NCBI GenBank assembly: GCA_045837725.1
Contig: JBEWZL010000124.1
Location: 124,001-188,000, forward strand
From: Vermamoeba vermiformis
Lineage: Eukaryota
Length of the DNA stretch: 64,000 nucleotides
Direction of reading: 5' to 3'
The notes under the pieces: generated by a model
The model's input: only the letters and a program-made list of their open reading frames with translations
Databases searched by the model: none
Told to the model about the DNA's origin: nothing
Shown here: positions 23,674 through 35,164 of the stretch, piece after piece
Layout: each line of letters begins with the position of its first letter
How positions within the stretch are numbered: position 1 is the first letter of the stretch
Made by a program: the position numbers and the translations under genes

Positions 23674-26170
23674 ATGAGACTGCAGCTGTTTTTTATGGCA
23701 TTTATCCTGCTGGCCTTCGCATCGAATTTTGTTAACGGAGGTATTTAATTAATGATCGCATATTTACCCTTGCTAATGTCAATTGTTAGATTTGTTAACG
23801 AATCATGGATTGCTTTACGTTCGGATCGTTCCGCCAGATGGTGCAATTATCAAATCTAATCCTCCATCATTTTGGTGGACTGCTCAAGGATATCTTGGCA
23901 CCGGCAAATCATTTACGTTGTCGATCTGGGCCAACTCGGCATCCGATCGTCAACCTGACTGGAGTTTCAACACGACAAACAACTTCTACAACATGCCTCT
24001 TGCGTTACCCGTGGACACGACCTACTTTTGGAGAGTGACTTTGATGAACTCTGTCATGGGCACGTCGAATGACAGCGATGTGCGTTCTTTTTTCGTCACA
24101 TCTGATGCCACAACATTTATCGTGCCAAATGACGTTATCACAACGACAAAGAATTCTGCTCGTCCACGGTTGTTGCTTAAGGGCGATGCGAAGACAGCTT
24201 TCTTGGCTTCATCCGCTGGTCAATCATTCGTCAAGCAATTGAATGCCGTTGTAATTCCGTACCTGAACAGTAAGCTCGGAGCAACACTTCCTGTTGCGCC
24301 GAACAAAACTGCTAGTGATTTTGCTTATGGATCTCCGGAATGGGCTGCATACTCATCGAGCGTTATGAATGACTTCACGAGTCCGCAGGTCCTTTACATT
24401 TCAAACTGCATTTACGCTCTTTGGTACGACTCGTCAAATGCAACCATAGTCAATGAGCTCAAGCGAAGAACATTAGCACTTTTGGACGCGGATCCAGCAG
24501 GAGCAACAAGCCAGGCCTCACAAGATCAAGCGAACAGAGCTATCTTCTTGTCATTGGCACAAACCCTGGATTTGATCTACGACAATTTCACCGTAACTGA
24601 TCGCAATAGAATCATGGCGAACATCAAGAACAGAACCGAGCAAGTGTACAACAATGGATATTTCTTCACTCAATTAATGACAGCGCCATACGACTCTCAC
24701 GGTGCCAACACTCTCGGCTACGTCGCTAGTGCTAGTGCGGCGATGCTTGGACTGATTCCTGAAGCAGACGCATGGGCAGCGAGTATTCCGATGTTCTTCA
24801 ACATGTACAGCACGTGGGGTGAGCACGAAGGAGGCTTTGGCAACGGCATTGGCTACAACTACTACTCCGTGACAAGTGAACCAGCTAACTTCAAATTCTT
24901 GAAGTGGAGTACTGGCGTGAGTCTGTATCGGAAGCAGTGGGTGCAGCGGTGGCCCTTGCAGTTCATTTACTTCTCCCCTCCAGGTGCGGCATCGGGAGGT
25001 CTTGGCTTTGGCGACAGCGGGCAGAATGACATGCGAGTGTATCAACCTATGGTCTGTCTCAACGTTGTTAGTTACGTTCTTGATGAGTCTCCGACCATGG
25101 AATACCAAGAACTTTATAACTGGTACTGCAATGCGCTCACCTACAAAGGCGTTGTCGACACGCGCCGCTACGATGTTATTTGGAGCCGTGAGTTCAACTC
25201 GCCTCAACCTCTGACAGGCAACTATCCCAATGCTGTCCACTTGGAATCGATTGGCTGGGCCTCATTCCACAGCTCTCTTGCTGACAATCTACGCACTTCA
25301 ATGTTCTTCCGCTCAGGCAGATTCGGCTCGTTCAATCACAACTACGCAGATCAGTTGTGCTTCACATTTGCACACAAAGGCAAAGCGTTGCTCATCAACA
25401 GCGGTTACTACGATTACTATGGATCTGCTCATCATAATGGTTGGACTAGGACCACACGATCAAAGAGTGGTGGTGTGACAATGGATGGAGGTGTTGGGCA
25501 AACGATGAATCAGATCTCGGCGACAGGAAACATCACTCAATTTGGCCACTCAAACGAATTTGATTTCATCACTGGAGATGCTTTGGTCGCGTACAATTAT
25601 GGCGTAACAAACACAGATCTTCAATTAACACGCGCCATTCGCTCCATTGTCTACTTCCGCGCTAGCAATCAGTTTGTGATCTTCGATCAATTTGACGCCA
25701 ACTCTTCTCGGAGCTTTGAATGGAATCTGCACGCATTCAAAAACTTCACTGTTGTCTCTCCATCGACTGTCAAGTCAAGTGACGGCAACGCATCAATGTG
25801 CATCAAGATGCTGTACACGTCATCTGATTACACCTTTACTCAAACAGATCAGTTTACTGTTCCGGTGAACTTGCCTAATCAAGCACACGGACAGTTCAAA
25901 CTCAACACTAATCTCACTTCAGTCACTTTTGTTGTGCTGTTGGATCCAGACTGTACGGGAAATGAACCACAGCTGAATCATAATGGGAACACGTGGTCAT
26001 TCAATATTGGCGAAACGATAGGCACTTGGGATGGCAATCAACTTGCCTTCTCTAATCCTGAAACACCCACTGACTCTCACACACCCGATGGCTCCGTCAC
26101 CAGCACTGCCTCGCCGACTGCCTTTTGGTTTGTCGCAATAACTATTGCTTCGTGCATCATGTTGGTTTAA
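23674..26170 (+). CDS. Heparinase II/III or oligo-alginate lyase-like (DUF4962 + Hepar_II_III), copy B, intact; signal peptide and GPI-like tail
   Basis: Signal exon MRLQLFFMAFILLAFAS, one short intron, 795-aa ORF with RPRLL, YDSHG, GFGNGIGY, GFGDSG, FRSGRFGSFNHNYADQ, LLINSGYYDYYGSAHH, FEWNLH; S/T/P stalk and hydrophobic C-terminus. Confidence 0.85.
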
Positions 26171-27418: not shown

Positions 27419-30066
27419 ATGGGTGGCGTGGCTGATGACGGAAGCCAGTACTCGAACGGAGTAGCTGCGATCTTCGTATTTAATTTAATTGTCGGAGTCG
27501 GCGTGTTAAATTTGCCGCTTGGATTTCAAAGCGCAGGTCTGGTAAGTATTTATTAAAAACACAATTAAAAAGCGAAGATTTTCTAACGGCAGTTTTGGAT
27601 CCGAATTTTAAAAAATCTTATAATTCGCCAAGGCGCTGAAATATTAATTTAATTACTTATAATCAATTATTCGTTATTTTTACGGTTTATGAAAGTCATA
27701 AATTAATTATTATTTTGTGATCAGGTGCTGGGAACAGTTTTTTTGGGATTCCTCGCTTTACTAGCGTAAGTTTATTAGTGCCATATTATGAAATACACAT
27801 TAATATTAATTTATACGGCAAAGTTACATCACAATTTCGTTTATGATTGAAACTCACGCTGCAGCAAACGCGATCTTGTCCGAAGAGGAACAACAGGTAA
27901 ATAAATACCTATTATATTTACATTTATATTTACGATAATGAATTATGCTATCTTTCAGTAATACAAAGCAATAGTTGAAATTTCGAATGTTGATCGGGAT
28001 CTTCTGATCGCTAACACTTTTTTTAATGAATACCTAGACCCAGCCACTATTAGGAAATGAAGAAATAGTAGTAGGACGCACTATTAATGAAGCCCCGTCG
28101 GACCGAGATCCGTTCGATATTTCAAAACGAGTCGAAATGGGTGTTATGGCCGAAATTTTCTTAGGCCCCGTCGGCAAAATTTTCTTCTACATTGTTATGA
28201 TCGTATCCTTATAATATTATTATACTATACTAATGTCATGCGCTAAACTCAATTAGCAAGAAATTTTTTTCCTTCACTAAATATTCTCGCAGATCTACTT
28301 GTTTGGAGATCTGGCAATTTACGCCGTCGCAGTTCCATCATCTCTTGCTGCAGCCACTGGTGGTTGGTCTGTAGGTAAGTATAATACTGCATTTGCGAAT
28401 AGTCTAGCGAATATTTCGGAGGAGTTTCCGAGGGACAAACCTTGTGATTCGAAATTGCTGTCAATTTTTCTGACCGTGAAAATGCAGTTTCCTAATTTGT
28501 AATTTTTATTATAGGCTCAATTACATTCACCGATGATAATGTATATTACTTCTATTTGGCTTGTTTTACGATTATTGTAGTGCCATTTGGATTTTTTAAT
28601 TTCCAAAAAACGAAATATTTGCAATTCTTCACTATGGGCACGAGAAACACTGCTTTATTTATGTAAGTACTATTCGTATTATCGTGTTATTATGCATTTC
28701 CTTATTTATTTTGCAGGATGATTATTTTGGGTTTGATTTTCATTGGTCAAGGCAACGGCGCATTACCCGATCAATTGCCGTTAGTAAATTGGGCGTAAGT
28801 ATTTATTTTTAAATTTTACCACAACATATTTTATCAATTTTATCATTCTCGGCAAATTTTTAAAAAAGTAGAGTACTTCCGCGCCAATTTGGTAATTAAT
28901 TTTTCTACGGCTTGCAAAAAAAGCGAACTTTATTGTATTTTACTTTGGTATTATTATACAATTATTAAATTATTATTATTTTTGCGCAGAGGCTTGCCTA
29001 AAATGTTCGGAGTTGCCGTGTACGCATTCATGTGCCACCACAGCTTGCCGTCAATCGTGACACCGATCAAGGACAAATCATTCGTCGGAAAGTTGATGGG
29101 CATTGACCTCTTGTTGATCTATCTCACGTACATCTTGCTCAATTATTCCGCCATGTTCGCTTTTGGCGCTATTGACAACCCAACCTGTGACTCGACACCA
29201 GGTAAGAAAATTAACTCCAATTCCATCGTAATTGCATATTTATTACTTAAAGAATCGTAATTATGATAACTATTCGATATTTGGAAGTTAATTTTTTGGT
29301 AGTTTTGAACGAATGTGAAAAAAAATCAAGATCTGGATCTGACAACTTTTTTCATGCACATCAAAGCAAGCGGTACTAATATTGTTTTTAAGGTCCTGCA
29401 TGCAAAATTCAGCCACTCTACACGTGGAACTTCAATTCGTACCACATTGTGCCCATCGCCAAGTTCTTGGGCTTGTTCCCCGTGTTCACGTTGTCCACGA
29501 ACTTCCCGTTGATTATGATCACACTGCGCAACAACGTGATGAACTTGATCAAGGTTGGCGAGCGTTCAATGAATCCTACTTTGCGCGGAGTTATTTTCAG
29601 CATTCTTGTCACCGCACCTGCTATCACCATTGCATTTTTCACTCAGGACATCAAAATTTTGGTACGTAATAATAATAATAATTACAAATACGTATGACAC
29701 GTGACTGAAATTAGCAAAAATATTCCAATTTTAAAAAAGAATTGCAAAATTTTGGTTTCGTTTGTGACACGTGTCAAAACAGCACTTGCATCGATTTTTG
29801 CTTGTATATGATCTGTTCGTTCGCTAACCTCGCTGTGACAGGTGTCAGTGACGGGCTCGTACGCAGGCATGGGCATTATGTTCTTGTTCCCTTCGCTGCT
29901 CGTCTTCTTCGCTCGTCGCAAGATCACTGCGCGCTTCGGATTCTACGAAAACAAGCACGCATCATTCTTCAGACACACTTTTTGGATCGTGTTGATCTGG
30001 ATCTGGGTTGTTGGTGCTACTGGTCTCGTGGTGTACACTCAAATTAGCTCTGTTGTATCTGAATAA
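27419..30066 (+). CDS. TMEM104: Transmembrane protein 104 (Aa_trans amino-acid transporter family), multi-exon
   Basis: FVFNLIVGVGVLNLP, KRVEMG, IYLFGDLAIYA, YAFMCHHSLPSIVTP, FPVFTLSTNFPLIMITLRNN, TGSYAG. Confidence 0.9.
28203..28292 (+). other. U12-type (minor spliceosome) GT-AG intron in TMEM104
   Basis: 5' splice site GTATCCTT; branch-like TTCCTTCAC at 28269-28277, 16 nt before the AG. Removal joins FYIVMI to IYLFGDLAIYA in frame. Confidence 0.8.
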
Positions 30067-30223
30067 AATATAGGTACTTTCCTAATATGGTAAAATCAAA
30101 AAACAAGCAGACAAAAATCTCCCGCCTTCAATTCCGTTCTTTTTCTCAGTTCAATAGCATAGTGAAGCACGATTAAATGAAAAATAGGTAGCCACTCATT
30201 ATAGTAATACGTATACCACATAA

Positions 30224-32930
30224 ATGGAAGTTAAAACTGAGGATCTTGAGCGGTTGTTCGAATCCAAATATTCAGGTAATTTCAACTTTGTTGTTTAGCA
30301 ACAAATAAATAATGAAAATTAGTAAAATAATTTTAGATTATTAATTAAGTTGTTTTGAACAAGATTTAAAGCTCCAGAATATTTATTTATTTGGATCGAG
30401 ACTTTACCAATGTCATAACGAGCAATCCGATTACGATTTTATCGTATTAGTAGAAGGAGAATATTTCTTTGGATCTAAATTAATAGAAACTGATCTTGTA
30501 AATTTAAACGTAAGTCGCTTTACACCAAAATATTGATCTCAATTAATTTTAATTTTTAAATAGATCTACCACCTCGATTATTTTAACGAGCTGCTTAAAG
30601 AAAACATAGTATGGGCGATAATGCTATATTATATTCCTCCGGAGTTTATCTTCAAAGAGAACATCAAACTCGATTTCAAAATTCGGATCCCGAGCTTAAA
30701 AAAATCATGTACGTCTCATATATGATTAATATCCTTATTAATTATTTATATAGCGCTTATGGATGCTTCTCACAATTACGCGAAGGCTAAACGCCTTTGG
30801 TCTATGAACGACCACAAAAAATCGAAGAAAAATATTGTTCATGGTCTTCGGTGCGTATTTAATTAAATATTAGTATAATATTATTATTTTTTAATTTGCA
30901 ATAAAATTATAGTAAAATCATCAATTAGACCGAATTATTAATCGTTCGTTGATAGATATTTATTATTAGCGAAACAACTGCTCGAACAAGAAAAAATCGT
31001 TGATTTTACCGCTGGCAATGAATATTGGCGCGATTTAATGCAAAATGAGTGGCGAGATTGGGACGAGATTGAATGCAAATACAAACCTATCTACGGCGAT
31101 CTGATGCACGAAATCAAACACTCGTACAATCCTGAAGATATTAACGTAAGTACATCTAATACTTATACTTAATATAGTCATAGCTAATTAAGGAAATATT
31201 TTTGCGTTAGAGCGACGAAGAAAATAAATTATTATCAGTAGTGTACATACACCGACTCGGAATCGATGCCTTATGCTCCGTAAGTACTATTTTTCAACAA
31301 TACTCTTTTTAATAGCATTAACATCACAATATGAAAGTACTATTAATTTTTTGAATAATTTTATTGTTATTTTTTTTTGTTGACCGGTTAATTTTTTAGG
31401 ATTTTAGTATAACGAGCACGAAACACAAAACAGTGAGTGATTTAGTGCACTTAAAATACGACAAAAAGAGCTCGCCACTCGATCAACTGATAGTGCAAGA
31501 ATGTAACGGGCTCGTTGTGGACGTGAAACAATTGAAAGCGATCTGCGTCCCGCCAAAGAAATTCTTTCAACACAACGGCAATTTGAAATCAACTGTCGAT
31601 GAGCAATCAGGTAAAAAAATATTATAATATAACAAGATACTGTTCTCCTGGTTTGATTTTCATTTTCGCGTGAAAAATTAGCTTGACACGTGTCAAAGAT
31701 ATTTTTCACAGGCATCGCGATCGATGTACGCTCCTTATTTAGAAACTAATATTATACGATTACATTACAGCGGTGGTTTATGAAAAGATCGATGGATTGA
31801 CAGCGAATTTGTACTATTATAATGACACTTGGCACGTGTCAACAGATTACACAGCAGACGGATCCGAACAAATTGAAATTCCGTTTCATTTCTCAAAACA
31901 AGAATATAAATTACGTTGGAATGCGTGGCGAACGACAGAATTCACTGAAGAAGAGAAAAAAATGAAGGGACTGTCATTGACCAATCAAAAAATTGACGCA
32001 ACGAACGAGCACAAGAAAATTGTTTCATTTTCGGAGTTATTTTGGGAAGCATGGTCTAAAAATGGCTATAAATTGCCCGAAGACACGACAAAGTGCTACT
32101 TATTTGTGCTGATCTCGAAACGCTACACGAATGTTTGCAGATATTTCGAATCGATCGATCAGCAGCAACCGCGGTTCACTGAAAACACTCTCTTACTGAT
32201 TGGTTGCAGAAATTTATCGACATTTGATGAAGAAGCTCCTGAAGGTCCGTCATTATCCTTTTATGGAAGCTTCACCAAATGTACTAACTAAGCATTTAGA
32301 TGTGGCGGAAAAATATGGCTGGAAAGCAATTGCATCGTACAATTATTCCGCGTCAATCGATGACTTGGCTAAAAAATCATTGGAATTGGATCCGATCTTT
32401 CACGAAGGATTCGTTGTTTGCGACAGCAGGTACGTACACGGTTACTAAATATGGAAATAACTACGTAATATGAACAATTACTAATTTGGTACTAATGAAG
32501 GTTCAACCGAGTTAAAGTTCGATCGCCTCAATTTTCCGCACTTTTGGAGCTGGATCTGGTCAACAATGACTTGAACACTAATTACAGACTAATGATCGAT
32601 CTCATTCGGTCAAACGATCACGTGACATTTTTGGAGTATTTCACGCAGTTACAACCACTCTACGAGAGCGTCAAGAAAGATTTTGACAATTTTTGGAACG
32701 AGTTCCAAAAAGTATACAATAGTATACGATTTGATATTAACGATCCAAATTTGGATCAAAAGTTATTGGCGAGAAATTACGCCGCGACAGCGAAGAAGTA
32801 CAATTATTATCAGCTCTTATTTGAACTTCGAAAGATGAATTTTAGCGTGATTAGTGTCAAAGATTATTTGCGCACGATAAGATTGAAAAAGATTATCGAT
32901 TTATTGCGCGAGATCAAAGCTAAGAAATAA
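30224..32930 (+). CDS. Fusion of a Pol-beta-superfamily nucleotidyltransferase and a T4 Rnl1-type ATP-dependent RNA ligase, multi-exon
   Basis: YLFGSRLY...SDYDFIV (30385-30445), helical SHNYAKAKRL..KKNIVHGLRY, then VQECNGLVVD, PPKKFF, YEKIDG (motif I), WHVST, LLLIGCRN, EGFVVCD (motif IV), FNRVKVRSPQF (motif V). Confidence 0.82.
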
Positions 32931-33119
32931 ACTCGTTTCGATAACATTCGATATTGTTCAGTGAACAAATTAGGAAATCGAATAGTTACAGCGGCATGTA
33001 TTATTTCGAATATGTTTTTTGTTGGCTGAGATGGTGGTATTATTGATTTAATGGCGTATAATAATATAAAACATATTAGAATACACAAAGTCGTCGTTAT
33101 TTTCAACTTTTCTTGTCTT

Positions 33120-35051
33120 TCAATCGATGAGGACTGAAAAATATTGTTGCTGCCATTTCAACGATTCTTCCTCGTTTTCAGTGAATATAACACTATCAAT
33201 TAATCTTTTTGCTCCAACTTTCGTTTCTTTCAACAATTTTGCTAATTGTGGCGTTACAGCTGATCGCGTGATAAGTATGTAAAGCACATCCGTTAACGGA
33301 ACCGATGGAGGCAAAAGTGCTTCGAGTCTGCCATGCGGATCAACGTTCATATACCAATCTATTATATCTTGCGTAGTAACATCTTCGGGTCGATCTTTTT
33401 TTCGCTCATCTGGCGGAAAACTTCCGGCGATCAGATCCATCTTCGGAACCCATGAAAAATGTTCGTCTTTTGCATAATTTTTGAAAGCATTTTGAACAGT
33501 TGTTGATATATAATCATCTCTATTAACAACTGCATCGTATTGAGATCGGTCTTTCAAAAACGCTAAGATTGCTTGGGATGTGATTTCTTGTTGGGCTTGT
33601 AAAAACCAATATCCGCTTTTGTAATCGTAAATTTCTTTTCTTTGCAGTTGTTTTAATAATTCCAATTCTCCGCGAGTTGCTGTTGCTCCATAATGAGAAC
33701 TTCTATTCAAAAAATATGCAAGATCCGCTCCAATACTTTCACTAAAAGTGCTATTAGTCCATACATTGCCTCCATATTGTGTCGCTTTGAATTCTTTTGA
33801 TGCTAATTTTAGCCACGGGCGTAATGGCAACGCATGGCCTGATATTAATGTTGTGCTGCTGTTCATCGTTATTTTGGATTCGTTAAAAGCAGTGCGTTTG
33901 AATATAATAGAAACAGGTCCATAATGCACATTCGGTCCCATAACTGCAAATACGTGTTCGTGAGTTCCAAGAAATTCGTCGACCCAATAACCGATCCCTG
34001 TTTGTGACGATGTTTTCGGATCTGATACGAGACTCAGTGCGACTTTTTCGATCTTATCAAAGTCTTCTTTTGTAAAGGCCGGGAAGTAAAATTCAAATCG
34101 TGCTCTGCGTAGTTGAATTACACGTGTGTTACCCAAGCGATCGGCTGCAATCATGACCTGAAAAAAATTGTAAAAAATTGCAATAAAAGTTTTCATACTA
34201 AATAATTATTACTAATTTATCAATAAGAATATTATTAATTAATTAGTAGCACTTACTTCAGCCAAATTGATGATTTTTTCGATGCAATGATAGCACCGCC
34301 AAATGGGTACTGACTTATCCCACGGGCAAATTTTGCCGGTCATAATTTGCATAAAATGCGTTTGAAAATTCAGCATTAATTTAGTATACACTGAAGGTAT
34401 AGTGTCTGGTGGCATTAGTCGGGATCGGGCCTTGACGCTTCCAGATTGAATTATCTTGATGAGTGTATCGACTGAGCAACTATGAACTGGTAGTAGCTTC
34501 GTCAAAAGGTCTGTTACAGCTGCAGGCGGAGTTCTTAAAATTGCTGAAGGGAGCTTGTCGTCTTCAAACTGCGCCCGCCAAATATTCCGGCTCCACTTGC
34601 AAAAAGAGTGGTTTGATAGTGATGGTAATGCAGATGCTATATTAATAAAATTTCGGTCACTAGGTTTTATAATAATTGCGTACGAGTGAAAATTAAATTG
34701 CCCCATTTCCAGATCCCCAAAGATTTTGTTTCGCAGTATTATTTAAATTTTAATATTGTTATCATTACCTTGAAATAAATAAACGCCAATAACTGCGCAA
34801 TCACCAATTTTGTTGGTCGCCAAGGGCGAATCTGGGGAAAACGACACCTTCGTCTGCTTTCCTTCACCTTCTTTATAATACCACAGATAAATACAATGAA
34901 TATTCGGTGGATTTATGTTCGTTTTTTCTTTGATCAATTCTACCAAAGTTTGAGCGCTGCTGCACACGGCGATCTTGTAACCATTCACCAATGTCGTGCC
35001 TGTTGGTGTATCATAGTGATTTATAGTCAAAGAATAAATAGCTGTGTTCAT
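33120..35051 (-). CDS. Ubiquitin-like N-terminus plus putative ADP-ribosyltransferase-fold (DarT/DUF3626-like) domain, about 3 exons
   Basis: Three ORFs (34743-35117, 34239-34706, 33120-34196) linked by GT-AG introns. Motifs LPVHSC.VDTLIKIIQSGSVKAR, HVFAVMG..HYGPVSIIF and LEALLPPSVPLTDVLYI resemble the ART strand pattern. Coding status is solid; the family call is inference. Confidence 0.55.
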
Positions 35052-35164
35052 ATTTACTAACGTTGAAACTAAATAACGCCAGTTTCCCCGTTTTTTCTGG
35101 ATCTTGCCTCGAACCACGTGGATCCTATCAACAAATCAATAATTAAGTTAAAAAATAACCGTCT

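Follow-up and report, generated by a model that had tools for sequence, protein, structure and literature searches.

RlaP, an RNA-ligase-associated nucleotidyltransferase (NTase), was reportedly named by Burroughs and Aravind in 2016, and NTases associated with RNA ligases are said to have been known from operons since then. Partnerships between such an NTase and a ligase are already known in operons and in jumbo phages, and both folds are known. Here we describe a gene of Vermamoeba vermiformis in which the two partners form a single polypeptide. The gene lies on the plus strand at 30224-32930 of a 64,000-nucleotide stretch of genomic DNA (contig JBEWZL010000124.1 of assembly GCA_045837725.1, positions 124,001 to 188,000), which we call the window and to which all coordinates refer. 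Its product consists of an N-terminal Pol-beta NTase module and a C-terminal module that appears, from its alignment and modelled fold, to descend from an Rnl1-type ATP-dependent RNA ligase and to have lost three residues: the glutamate of motif III, the second lysine of motif V, and the arginine whose T4 Rnl1 counterpart touches the ATP gamma phosphate. Our favored reading, to which we assign a probability of roughly 55%, is that the protein adds nucleotides to RNA 3′ ends while the ligase-derived module serves RNA recognition, sealing being weak or absent.

The RlaP preprint (2025), the first report of an activity for these NTases, states that bacterial RlaP adds one or two nucleoside monophosphates to RNA 3′-OH ends, with a preference for damaged RNA; it shows PfRlaP to combine an NTase domain with a helical domain that forms a cleft, and gives three strictly conserved aspartates for RlaP. 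The N-terminal module of the window protein resembles RlaP in this layout of NTase domain followed by helical domain, in its G-S and D-x-D motifs, and in its physical tie to an RNA ligase, but it belongs to a family with two aspartates and an asparagine rather than the three aspartates given for RlaP, and the tie is a covalent fusion rather than an operon. The C-terminal module shares with T4 Rnl1 (gp63/RnlA; PDB 2c5u, 5tt6, and 9do4; PF09511) an N-subdomain and adenylyltransferase core with nine catalytic-site counterparts kept; after motif V comes an all-helical C-domain that can be aligned co-linearly with T4 residues 223-372, though without a sequence match and at a Z score of only 4.7. 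Unlike T4 Rnl1, the module carries Asn, Val, and Arg in place of R54, E159, and K242, contains some 30 disordered residues as an insert, and is encoded by an intron-bearing eukaryotic gene with a 210-residue NTase module fused upstream. The open-access literature searched, a set that does not include the original description of RlaP, yielded no paper on a eukaryotic fusion of this kind or on ligase-site decay within it.

Structure of the fused gene

Splicing the open frames by hand joins all ten exons into a coding sequence of 1944 nt, 647 codons plus TAA, with zero internal stops. Exons 1-5 (30224-30275, 30364-30509, 30564-30708, 30754-30850, and 30956-31145) encode residues 1-210, a Pol-beta NTase domain followed by a four-helix domain that together form an RlaP-like module; exons 6-10 (31211-31279, 31400-31610, 31771-32244, 32300-32429, and 32501-32930) encode residues 211-647, an Rnl1-like N-subdomain, an adenylyltransferase core, and a helical C-domain; and the border between the two modules coincides with intron 5 (31146-31210, phase 0). 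The nine introns all have GT..AG borders, range from 45 to 160 nt in length, and have a GC content of 18-36% compared with 38% for the exons.

The drawn structure can be compared with a protein of 649 residues from a public collection (P0001, labelled at source as a "predicted nucleotidyltransferase"), which was retrieved by the exon 8 query alone and was the sole longer protein returned. Aligned over 646 residues with a single gap, P0001 and the spliced translation are 87.5% identical, and at no drawn junction do they disagree. An earlier note, made from the letters of the window alone, had proposed a spliced eukaryotic gene fusing a Pol-beta NTase to a T4 Rnl1-type RNA ligase; its outer bounds prove to be exactly the ATG at 30224 and the stop codon at 32930, the single intron-containing gene is borne out by the ten-exon open path and by the agreement with P0001 at every junction, and every motif that it quoted is found on the plus strand (exon 2 encodes FGSRLY and SDYDF, the junction of exons 2 and 3 VNLN|IY, exon 7 ECNGLV and KKFF, exon 8 KIDG, exon 9 EGFVV, and exon 10 RVKVRS). 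A scan of the 64-kb window revealed no second copy of the gene within it. We conclude that the gene is nuclear, eukaryotic, and spliced by the spliceosome, and that its product is one two-module protein of 647 residues.

Transcript evidence

Three RNA-seq runs carrying the same species label (X2, X3, and X4) and a contig run (X1) were aligned to 29700-33300 at a likeness of at least 90%. Most of the reads (193/201, 172/194, and 140/154 in X2, X3, and X4, respectively) are 90-95% alike, and therefore derive from the orthologue of a relative rather than from this strain. Of the drawn introns, 1-6 and 8 find a counterpart in joints or loose ends of this RNA, and intron 9 an approximate one: i) intron 1 is matched by a joint 30273->30362, with GT..AG borders when the cut is moved by +2 (6, 5, and 3 reads in X2, X3, and X4); ii) at intron 2, loose read ends at 30509 carry on with the sequence that opens exon 3 (8 reads in X3 and 9 in X4); iii) intron 3 is matched by 30707->30754 (16, 7, and 11 reads), and introns 4 and 6 by joints in the X1 contig, the latter 31279->31400; iv) intron 5, at the module border, is matched by 31145->31214 (1, 4, and 1 reads); v) intron 7 has no joint among those listed (0 reads), with zero depth inside it (31636-31756) and coverage on either side; and vi) intron 8 is matched by 32242->32298 (19, 15, and 12 reads) and intron 9 by an imprecise joint, 32431->32547 (2, 4, and 5 reads). 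Depth is close to zero at 30063-30183 and at 32967-33087, and the transcript is therefore bounded at both ends.

The NTase and ligase halves are linked in this RNA by the joints 31145->31214, 31279->31400, and 31145->31400. The last of these runs from exon 5 to exon 7 and was seen in 3 reads of X3 and 3 reads of X4, six other reads containing exon 6; it represents either skipping of the in-frame, 69-nt exon 6 or a diverged exon 6 hidden between the two ends. In the T-rich tract of intron 6 (31347-31378), loose read ends made up of long stretches of T (10 reads in X2 and 8 in X3) probably reflect low-complexity mapping and not a true RNA end. Among the 40 listed nucleotide differences between the window and the RNA of the relative (94 more exist), 33 fall in the third, 6 in the first, and 1 in the second codon position, and these differences come from exons of both halves. 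A further protein, P0002 (650 residues, 35% identity, 100% query coverage), is an open reading frame marked complete in a transcriptome assembly of a eukaryotic proteome collection. At least two other organisms thus carry both halves on a single message, and the check for a single mRNA across 31146-31400, which the earlier note had called for and which was run here on the RNA of the relative, comes out in favor of one message, with agreement from the complete P0002 transcript.

Two separate genes or transcripts, or a decaying pseudogene, might still be read into the want of a listed intron 7 joint, the six reads in which 31145->31400 bypasses exon 6, and RNA that is not of the exact strain. 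Against this stand the 647-codon path open through nine introns, RNA joints that bridge the domain border, the full-length P0001 and P0002, the presence of both halves in the same order in 39 of 233 relatives, and the third-position changes that make up 33 of the 40 listed differences. We regard either version as exceedingly unlikely and reject it on these counts.

Fold of the ligase module

Direct comparisons recognise the C-terminal half poorly. Neither P0001 (at E≤1) nor the window pieces match PF09511, and P0001 reaches only PF09414, at 20.1 bits (cut-off 27); the best E values are 0.92 for P0001 against the PDB (phmmer) and 0.37 for the window protein against T4 Rnl1 (BLASTP), neither being significant. 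A profile of the family, in contrast to these single sequences, matches T4 Rnl1 with an E value of 9e-22, and a profile restricted to the adenylyltransferase part does so with an E value of 1e-21 over T4 residues 36-251; four of the four stand-alone relatives scanned pass PF09511 (E values from 9e-13 to 4e-22). An AlphaFold2 model of P0001 computed from a 103-row alignment (predicted local distance difference test score, pLDDT, 90.4; predicted template modelling score, pTM, 0.88) allows the same comparison at the level of structure, and here T4 Rnl1 heads the VIA ranking for the ligase half with Z 18.1 (233 residues aligned with a root-mean-square deviation, rmsd, of 2.6, model residues 216-523 against chain residues 0-251), followed by Rnl3 (15.8), Trl1 (15.4), and Naegleria Rnl5 (14.6). 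We conclude that the adenylyltransferase domain is Rnl1-type, as the earlier note had held, on the strength of the family profile, the VIA score, and the PF09511 matches of the stand-alone relatives.

The assignment to the Rnl1 type holds for the adenylyltransferase domain; for a C-domain specific to Rnl1 the evidence is weak, and full membership of the Rnl1 family is tentative. RNA ligase families are, as stated in a passage of PMC6379707, defined by their appended domains, and the all-alpha C-terminal domain of the window protein (eight helices; 32550-32927; AlphaFold2 model of exon 10, pLDDT 89.2) has no sequence match to T4 Rnl1 when a profile of the C-domain alone is used; the co-linear superposition of the exon 10 model on T4 Rnl1 covers 120 residues with an rmsd of 3.8 and a Z within noise, the best unrelated row reaching 5.0. 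A second departure is a charged, Lys/Glu-rich insert in the adenylyltransferase domain (about 31900-32010 on the plus strand, estimated from the exon 8 frame; P0001 residues about 350-381), which has no counterpart of T4 Rnl1 in the profile alignment and is the sole low-confidence part of the P0001 model, with pLDDT below 50 at residues 350-362 and 366-381.

The archaeal Rnl3 and the fungal and plant ligase Trl1 (Rnl6) share the Rnl1-like adenylyltransferase fold, and Trl1 is in addition a multi-domain polypeptide for end healing and sealing. Trl1, however, carries its kinase and CPD domains downstream and lacks an upstream Pol-beta NTase; the C-domains are different, and sequence similarity is much weaker (9qw7, E 1e-4).

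The ligase active site

Residues were mapped by aligning the window protein and T4 Rnl1 to one profile. Those kept (T4/window) are K75/K287, F76/F288, F77/F289, K99/K309, D101/D311, G102/G312, E227/E497, G228/G498, and K240/K510; those replaced are R54 by N269, E159 by V416, and K242 by R512. Motif I, K309-I-D311 of KIDG (31785-31793), contains the presumed adenylylation lysine and aligns with K99 and D101 of T4 (K-E-D-G), and motif IV, EGFVV (32406-32420), retains E497 and G498 in the profile alignment. To judge the replacements we counted residues in 164 stand-alone relatives with a near-complete domain and in 32 fused proteins, the window protein included. N269 (31505-31507), which turns ECRG into ECNG, stands at a position that is Arg in 162/164 stand-alone relatives; V416 (32106-32108), which turns FEL into FVL, stands at the motif III position that is Glu in 163/164; and in motif V, K510-V-R512 (32514-32522), the counterpart of T4 K240 is kept while that of K242 is now Arg, the second lysine being present in 163/164 stand-alone relatives. 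The motif I lysine is found in 164/164. All of these features lie on the plus strand.

The fused proteins depart from this pattern as a group. The R54 position is Arg in 6 of the 32, the E159 position Glu in 16, the K242 position Lys in 11, and the K99 position Lys in 16, so that the motif I lysine is gone in 16/32, whereas the G-S and D-x-D motifs of the NTase are intact in 41/41. Scored over 11 sites, the stand-alone relatives have all 11 in 131/164, at least 10 in 155/164, and at least 9 in 163/164; fused proteins with at least 10 number 6/32, the window protein and P0001 have 8, and 15 others have at most 4. Across the family, the observation is thus one of an NTase site that stays conserved and a ligase site that erodes. 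Judged by these residues, the ligase active site of the window protein appears eroded while the fold is retained, and the module may bind RNA rather than seal it. The identity between the window protein and P0001 is 80-92% in the regions of the ligase half and 92% in the NTase half; at that level of identity the ligase module is evidently kept for some function.

The earlier note had cast the protein as a patch-and-seal RNA-repair enzyme, and part of this stands: both modules are indeed in one protein, and the lysine nucleophile is kept. In its full form, in which the NTase restores 3′ nucleotides and the Rnl1 module self-adenylylates at K309 and seals the break, the proposal draws further support from the retention of K-x-D-G, of the motif IV EG, and of the first motif V lysine, from purifying selection on the ligase half, from the ties of RlaP-type NTases to RNA ligases in phages and bacteria, and from the six fused relatives with at least 10/11 sites, on which grounds an active fused form very probably exists. 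For the window protein itself we nonetheless think it unlikely, although worth keeping in mind, since N269, V416, and R512 occupy positions kept in at least 162/164 stand-alone relatives, and since passages of PMC6379707 describe Arg54 of T4 Rnl1 as touching the ATP gamma phosphate and as essential in vitro, and the motif III glutamate and both motif V lysines as activity residues in Trl1. Most fused relatives have decayed further still.

The nucleotidyltransferase module

The exon 2 piece alone exceeds the Pfam cut-offs of PF18765 (30.6 bits; cut-off 26.9) and PF01909 (24.2 bits; cut-off 21), in keeping with the earlier identification of the N-terminal half as a Pol-beta NTase. In the P0001 model, strands at 21-28, 42-49, 56-60, and 64-70 are followed by helices at 109-132, 136-159, 169-177, and 183-202. 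The hG[GS] motif, G28-S29 (30393-30398), and both aspartates of the metal-binding DxD motif, D40-Y-D42 (30429-30437), are invariant in 41/41 NTase domains of the family, as is K141. The strand expected to carry the third carboxylate reads N64-L-N66 (30501-30509, like the other motifs on the plus strand), and at the position of N64 (N65 in P0001) 34 of the 41 domains have N, five have D, one has E, and one has Q, which agrees with the remark in the earlier note that the expected third carboxylate seems to be an asparagine. Sequence alignments to solved NTases end ahead of the N64 strand, and two phage relatives have S-x-H there; Asn64 may plausibly be the third metal ligand.

The relation of this module to RlaP is close in some respects and not in others. 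The NTase/helical layout and the association with a ligase speak for it; the two aspartates plus asparagine, and the Pfam scores, do not. P0001 has no match to RlaP PF10127 (cut-off 23 bits) at E≤1, and its relatives score 21.6, 19.3, and 18 bits, all under the cut-off, in weak matches that span about 145 residues. We therefore call the module RlaP-like and not RlaP, the three-Asp signature and the Pfam cut-off both going unmatched, and on present sequence comparisons the family sits beside RlaP.

Among the phage NTases related to this module are gp154 of Bacillus phage PBC2 and ORF208 of Xanthomonas phage XacN1, which are 27-28% identical to P0001 residues 9-202; gp154 lies 1.4 kb upstream of a pair of genes, one for an RNA ligase with a PF09414 and an OB domain, the other for a kinase-HD protein. 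Both differ from the window module in standing alone and in the S-x-H motif on the third strand, and the ligase that neighbors gp154 is Rnl2-like rather than Rnl1-like.

A different substrate for the NTase would follow if it did not act on RNA ends at all but made a nucleotide or oligonucleotide signal, or modified a protein or small molecule, as do the solved NTases nearest in structure (Hailong HalB, MntA, and aminoglycoside NTases), with the ligase-like module as sensor or scaffold. The solved folds nearest the NTase half point that way, being those of Hailong HalB (VIA Z 10.5; 168-170 residues aligned, model residues 21-199) and then of ANT(4′) and kanamycin NTases; so do the nearest matches by sequence, MNT/MntA and ANT, the asparagine where a third carboxylate is expected, and the RlaP score below its cut-off. 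We hold this to be improbable in view of the permanent joining to the fold of an RNA ligase, which favors an RNA substrate, the phage relative adjoining an RNA ligase and a polynucleotide kinase, and the weak but repeated RlaP matches; moreover, PfRlaP lay outside the structures compared, so that the rank of HalB may only mirror that set.

Family, architectures, and phylogeny

A HMMER search of 1.84 billion representatives returned 3306 relatives at E≤1e-3, many of them 360-380 residues long. The 233 proteins that were fetched comprise 39 with both halves (the NTase always first), 12 with the NTase only, several of which are evidently truncated fused forms, and 182 with the ligase only. Some fused proteins carry a third enzyme: an RNase_T exonuclease precedes NTase and ligase in P0013 and P0045, to which P0157 is similar in its N-terminal extension, and an EEP nuclease/phosphatase precedes them in P0011; the exonuclease fusions keep an intact ligase site, and P0011 has only 7/11 sites. 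The fused relatives with intact sites (P0016, 624 residues; P0013, P0045, and P0157) agree with the window protein in the order of NTase and ligase and in the NTase signature, but keep 10-11 of the 11 ligase sites, are about 30% identical to P0001, and read h(N/D/E)A(A/V)hYD rather than hNhNhYH on the NTase strand; P0016 passes PF09511 directly. Such fusions fit a logic of trimming, adding, and sealing, and to that extent (in P0011 with the reduced site just mentioned) they favor the patch-and-seal alternative. Other Rnl1-like architectures include a kinase, dual-specificity phosphatase, AEP primase-polymerase, and ligase in P0019 and P0053 and a ligase with a poly(A)/uridylyl-transferase in P0034; together with the triple fusions, these fit the theme of RNA end repair. 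In P0071 the ligase is split by an intein that bears a LAGLIDADG endonuclease.

We looked for the operonic form of the partnership near stand-alone ligases in a locus scan based on the 12-sequence alignment A3, which covered the best 80 viral and the best 80 prokaryotic loci. A match to the NTase turned up in 0/80 and 0/80 of these, respectively (tblastn at E≤1e-3, 8 NTase queries, flanks of at most 4 kb per side, remoter RlaP genes being beyond reach). The nearest prokaryotic stand-alone ligases (loci L083-L162; about 30% identity, E values from 1e-46 to 1e-57) are cyanobacterial in 71/80 cases, chiefly from filamentous genera such as Microcoleus, Tychonema, and Kamptonema.

A quick maximum-likelihood tree was built from 96 ligase domains: the 32 fused proteins, 33/164 stand-alone relatives (every fifth), 14/80 viral rows, and 17/80 prokaryotic rows, the last made up of all 9 non-cyanobacterial or unlabelled rows and 8/71 cyanobacterial ones. 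In this unrooted tree, the fused group forms a separate deep branch that is not nested within the viral or bacterial rows, which are themselves scattered among the stand-alone proteins. A branch with 95% support in the Shimodaira-Hasegawa-like approximate likelihood ratio test (SH-aLRT) has on one side 26 decayed fused proteins, the window protein among them, and on the other, close to its base, the six fused proteins with intact sites; twelve fused rows are long-branched. The grouping of the window protein with decayed rather than intact fused forms counts against a working ligase in it. One fusion event or two, with decay afterwards, would each fit the tree, which, unrooted as it is, proves neither and identifies no viral or bacterial donor; the viral or bacterial origin that the earlier note thought probable is a possibility.

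Possible function

In the reading that we favor, the NTase would add one or a few nucleotides to RNA 3′-OH ends, for example those of nicked or trimmed tRNA; the ligase-derived module would chiefly recognise and hold the broken RNA; and the module's own sealing chemistry would be weakened or lost. Three elements of this reading are inferred: that RNA 3′ ends are the substrate, that the ligase module has the role just given, and that ligation has been lost.

We wish to stress that several observations weigh on the other side: i) the ligase module is still under purifying selection (80-92% identity, mostly third-position changes), and the function so retained could be catalytic; ii) 8/11 catalytic positions survive, among them the Lys nucleophile, the Asp and Gly of motif I, the EG of motif IV, and, in motif V, the first Lys, and the change from Lys to Arg at the second is a conservative one; iii) the residue calls in the most diverged fused proteins depend on long-branch alignments; iv) the RNA in evidence is that of a relative (90-95% likeness for most reads) and not of this strain, and intron 7 has no listed joint; and v) with Asn in place of a clear third carboxylate and a score under the RlaP cut-off, the chemistry and substrate proposed for the NTase are likewise putative.

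A broader proposal, which we put forward tentatively and with somewhat less confidence than the reading for the single protein, is that of a sizeable, apparently eukaryotic family in which an Rnl1 ligase has turned into a non-catalytic or catalytically altered RNA-recognition "pseudo-ligase" that guides the RlaP-like 3′-end adder to which it is permanently fused. If this is true, the window protein would be a part-way intermediate, with the nucleophile kept but without the gamma-phosphate Arg, the Glu of motif III, and one of the two Lys of motif V; the NTase would be the sole working enzyme, with Asn for its third carboxylate; and the surface by which Rnl1 binds broken tRNA would have been reused for the choice of substrate.

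Neighboring genes

Upstream of the fused gene, at 23777-26170 on the plus strand, an uninterrupted frame of 797 codons matches DUF4962 (E 9e-17) and the C-terminal domain of Heparinase II/III (E 6e-15), and ends in a hydrophobic C-terminal tail; such a polysaccharide-lyase-like gene, free of introns among intron-rich neighbors, could reflect horizontal acquisition. Just downstream, long open frames of 361, 167, and 130 residues lie on the minus strand at 33120-34205 and 34239-35135, with no Pfam match among those scanned.

Significance

The fused gene does not represent a new kind of system, because both folds and their association were already known. What it adds is that a partnership of NTase and ligase known from operons is united here in one protein, the product of a spliced eukaryotic gene, and that this protein has many fused relatives. 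These make up a natural series, from intact exonuclease-NTase-ligase fusions to forms without a ligase site, throughout which the NTase site is constant; this pattern predicts which of the two activities is essential and yields pseudo-enzyme candidates that can be tested, and the family offers a route to what Rnl1-type domains recognise in eukaryotic RNA.

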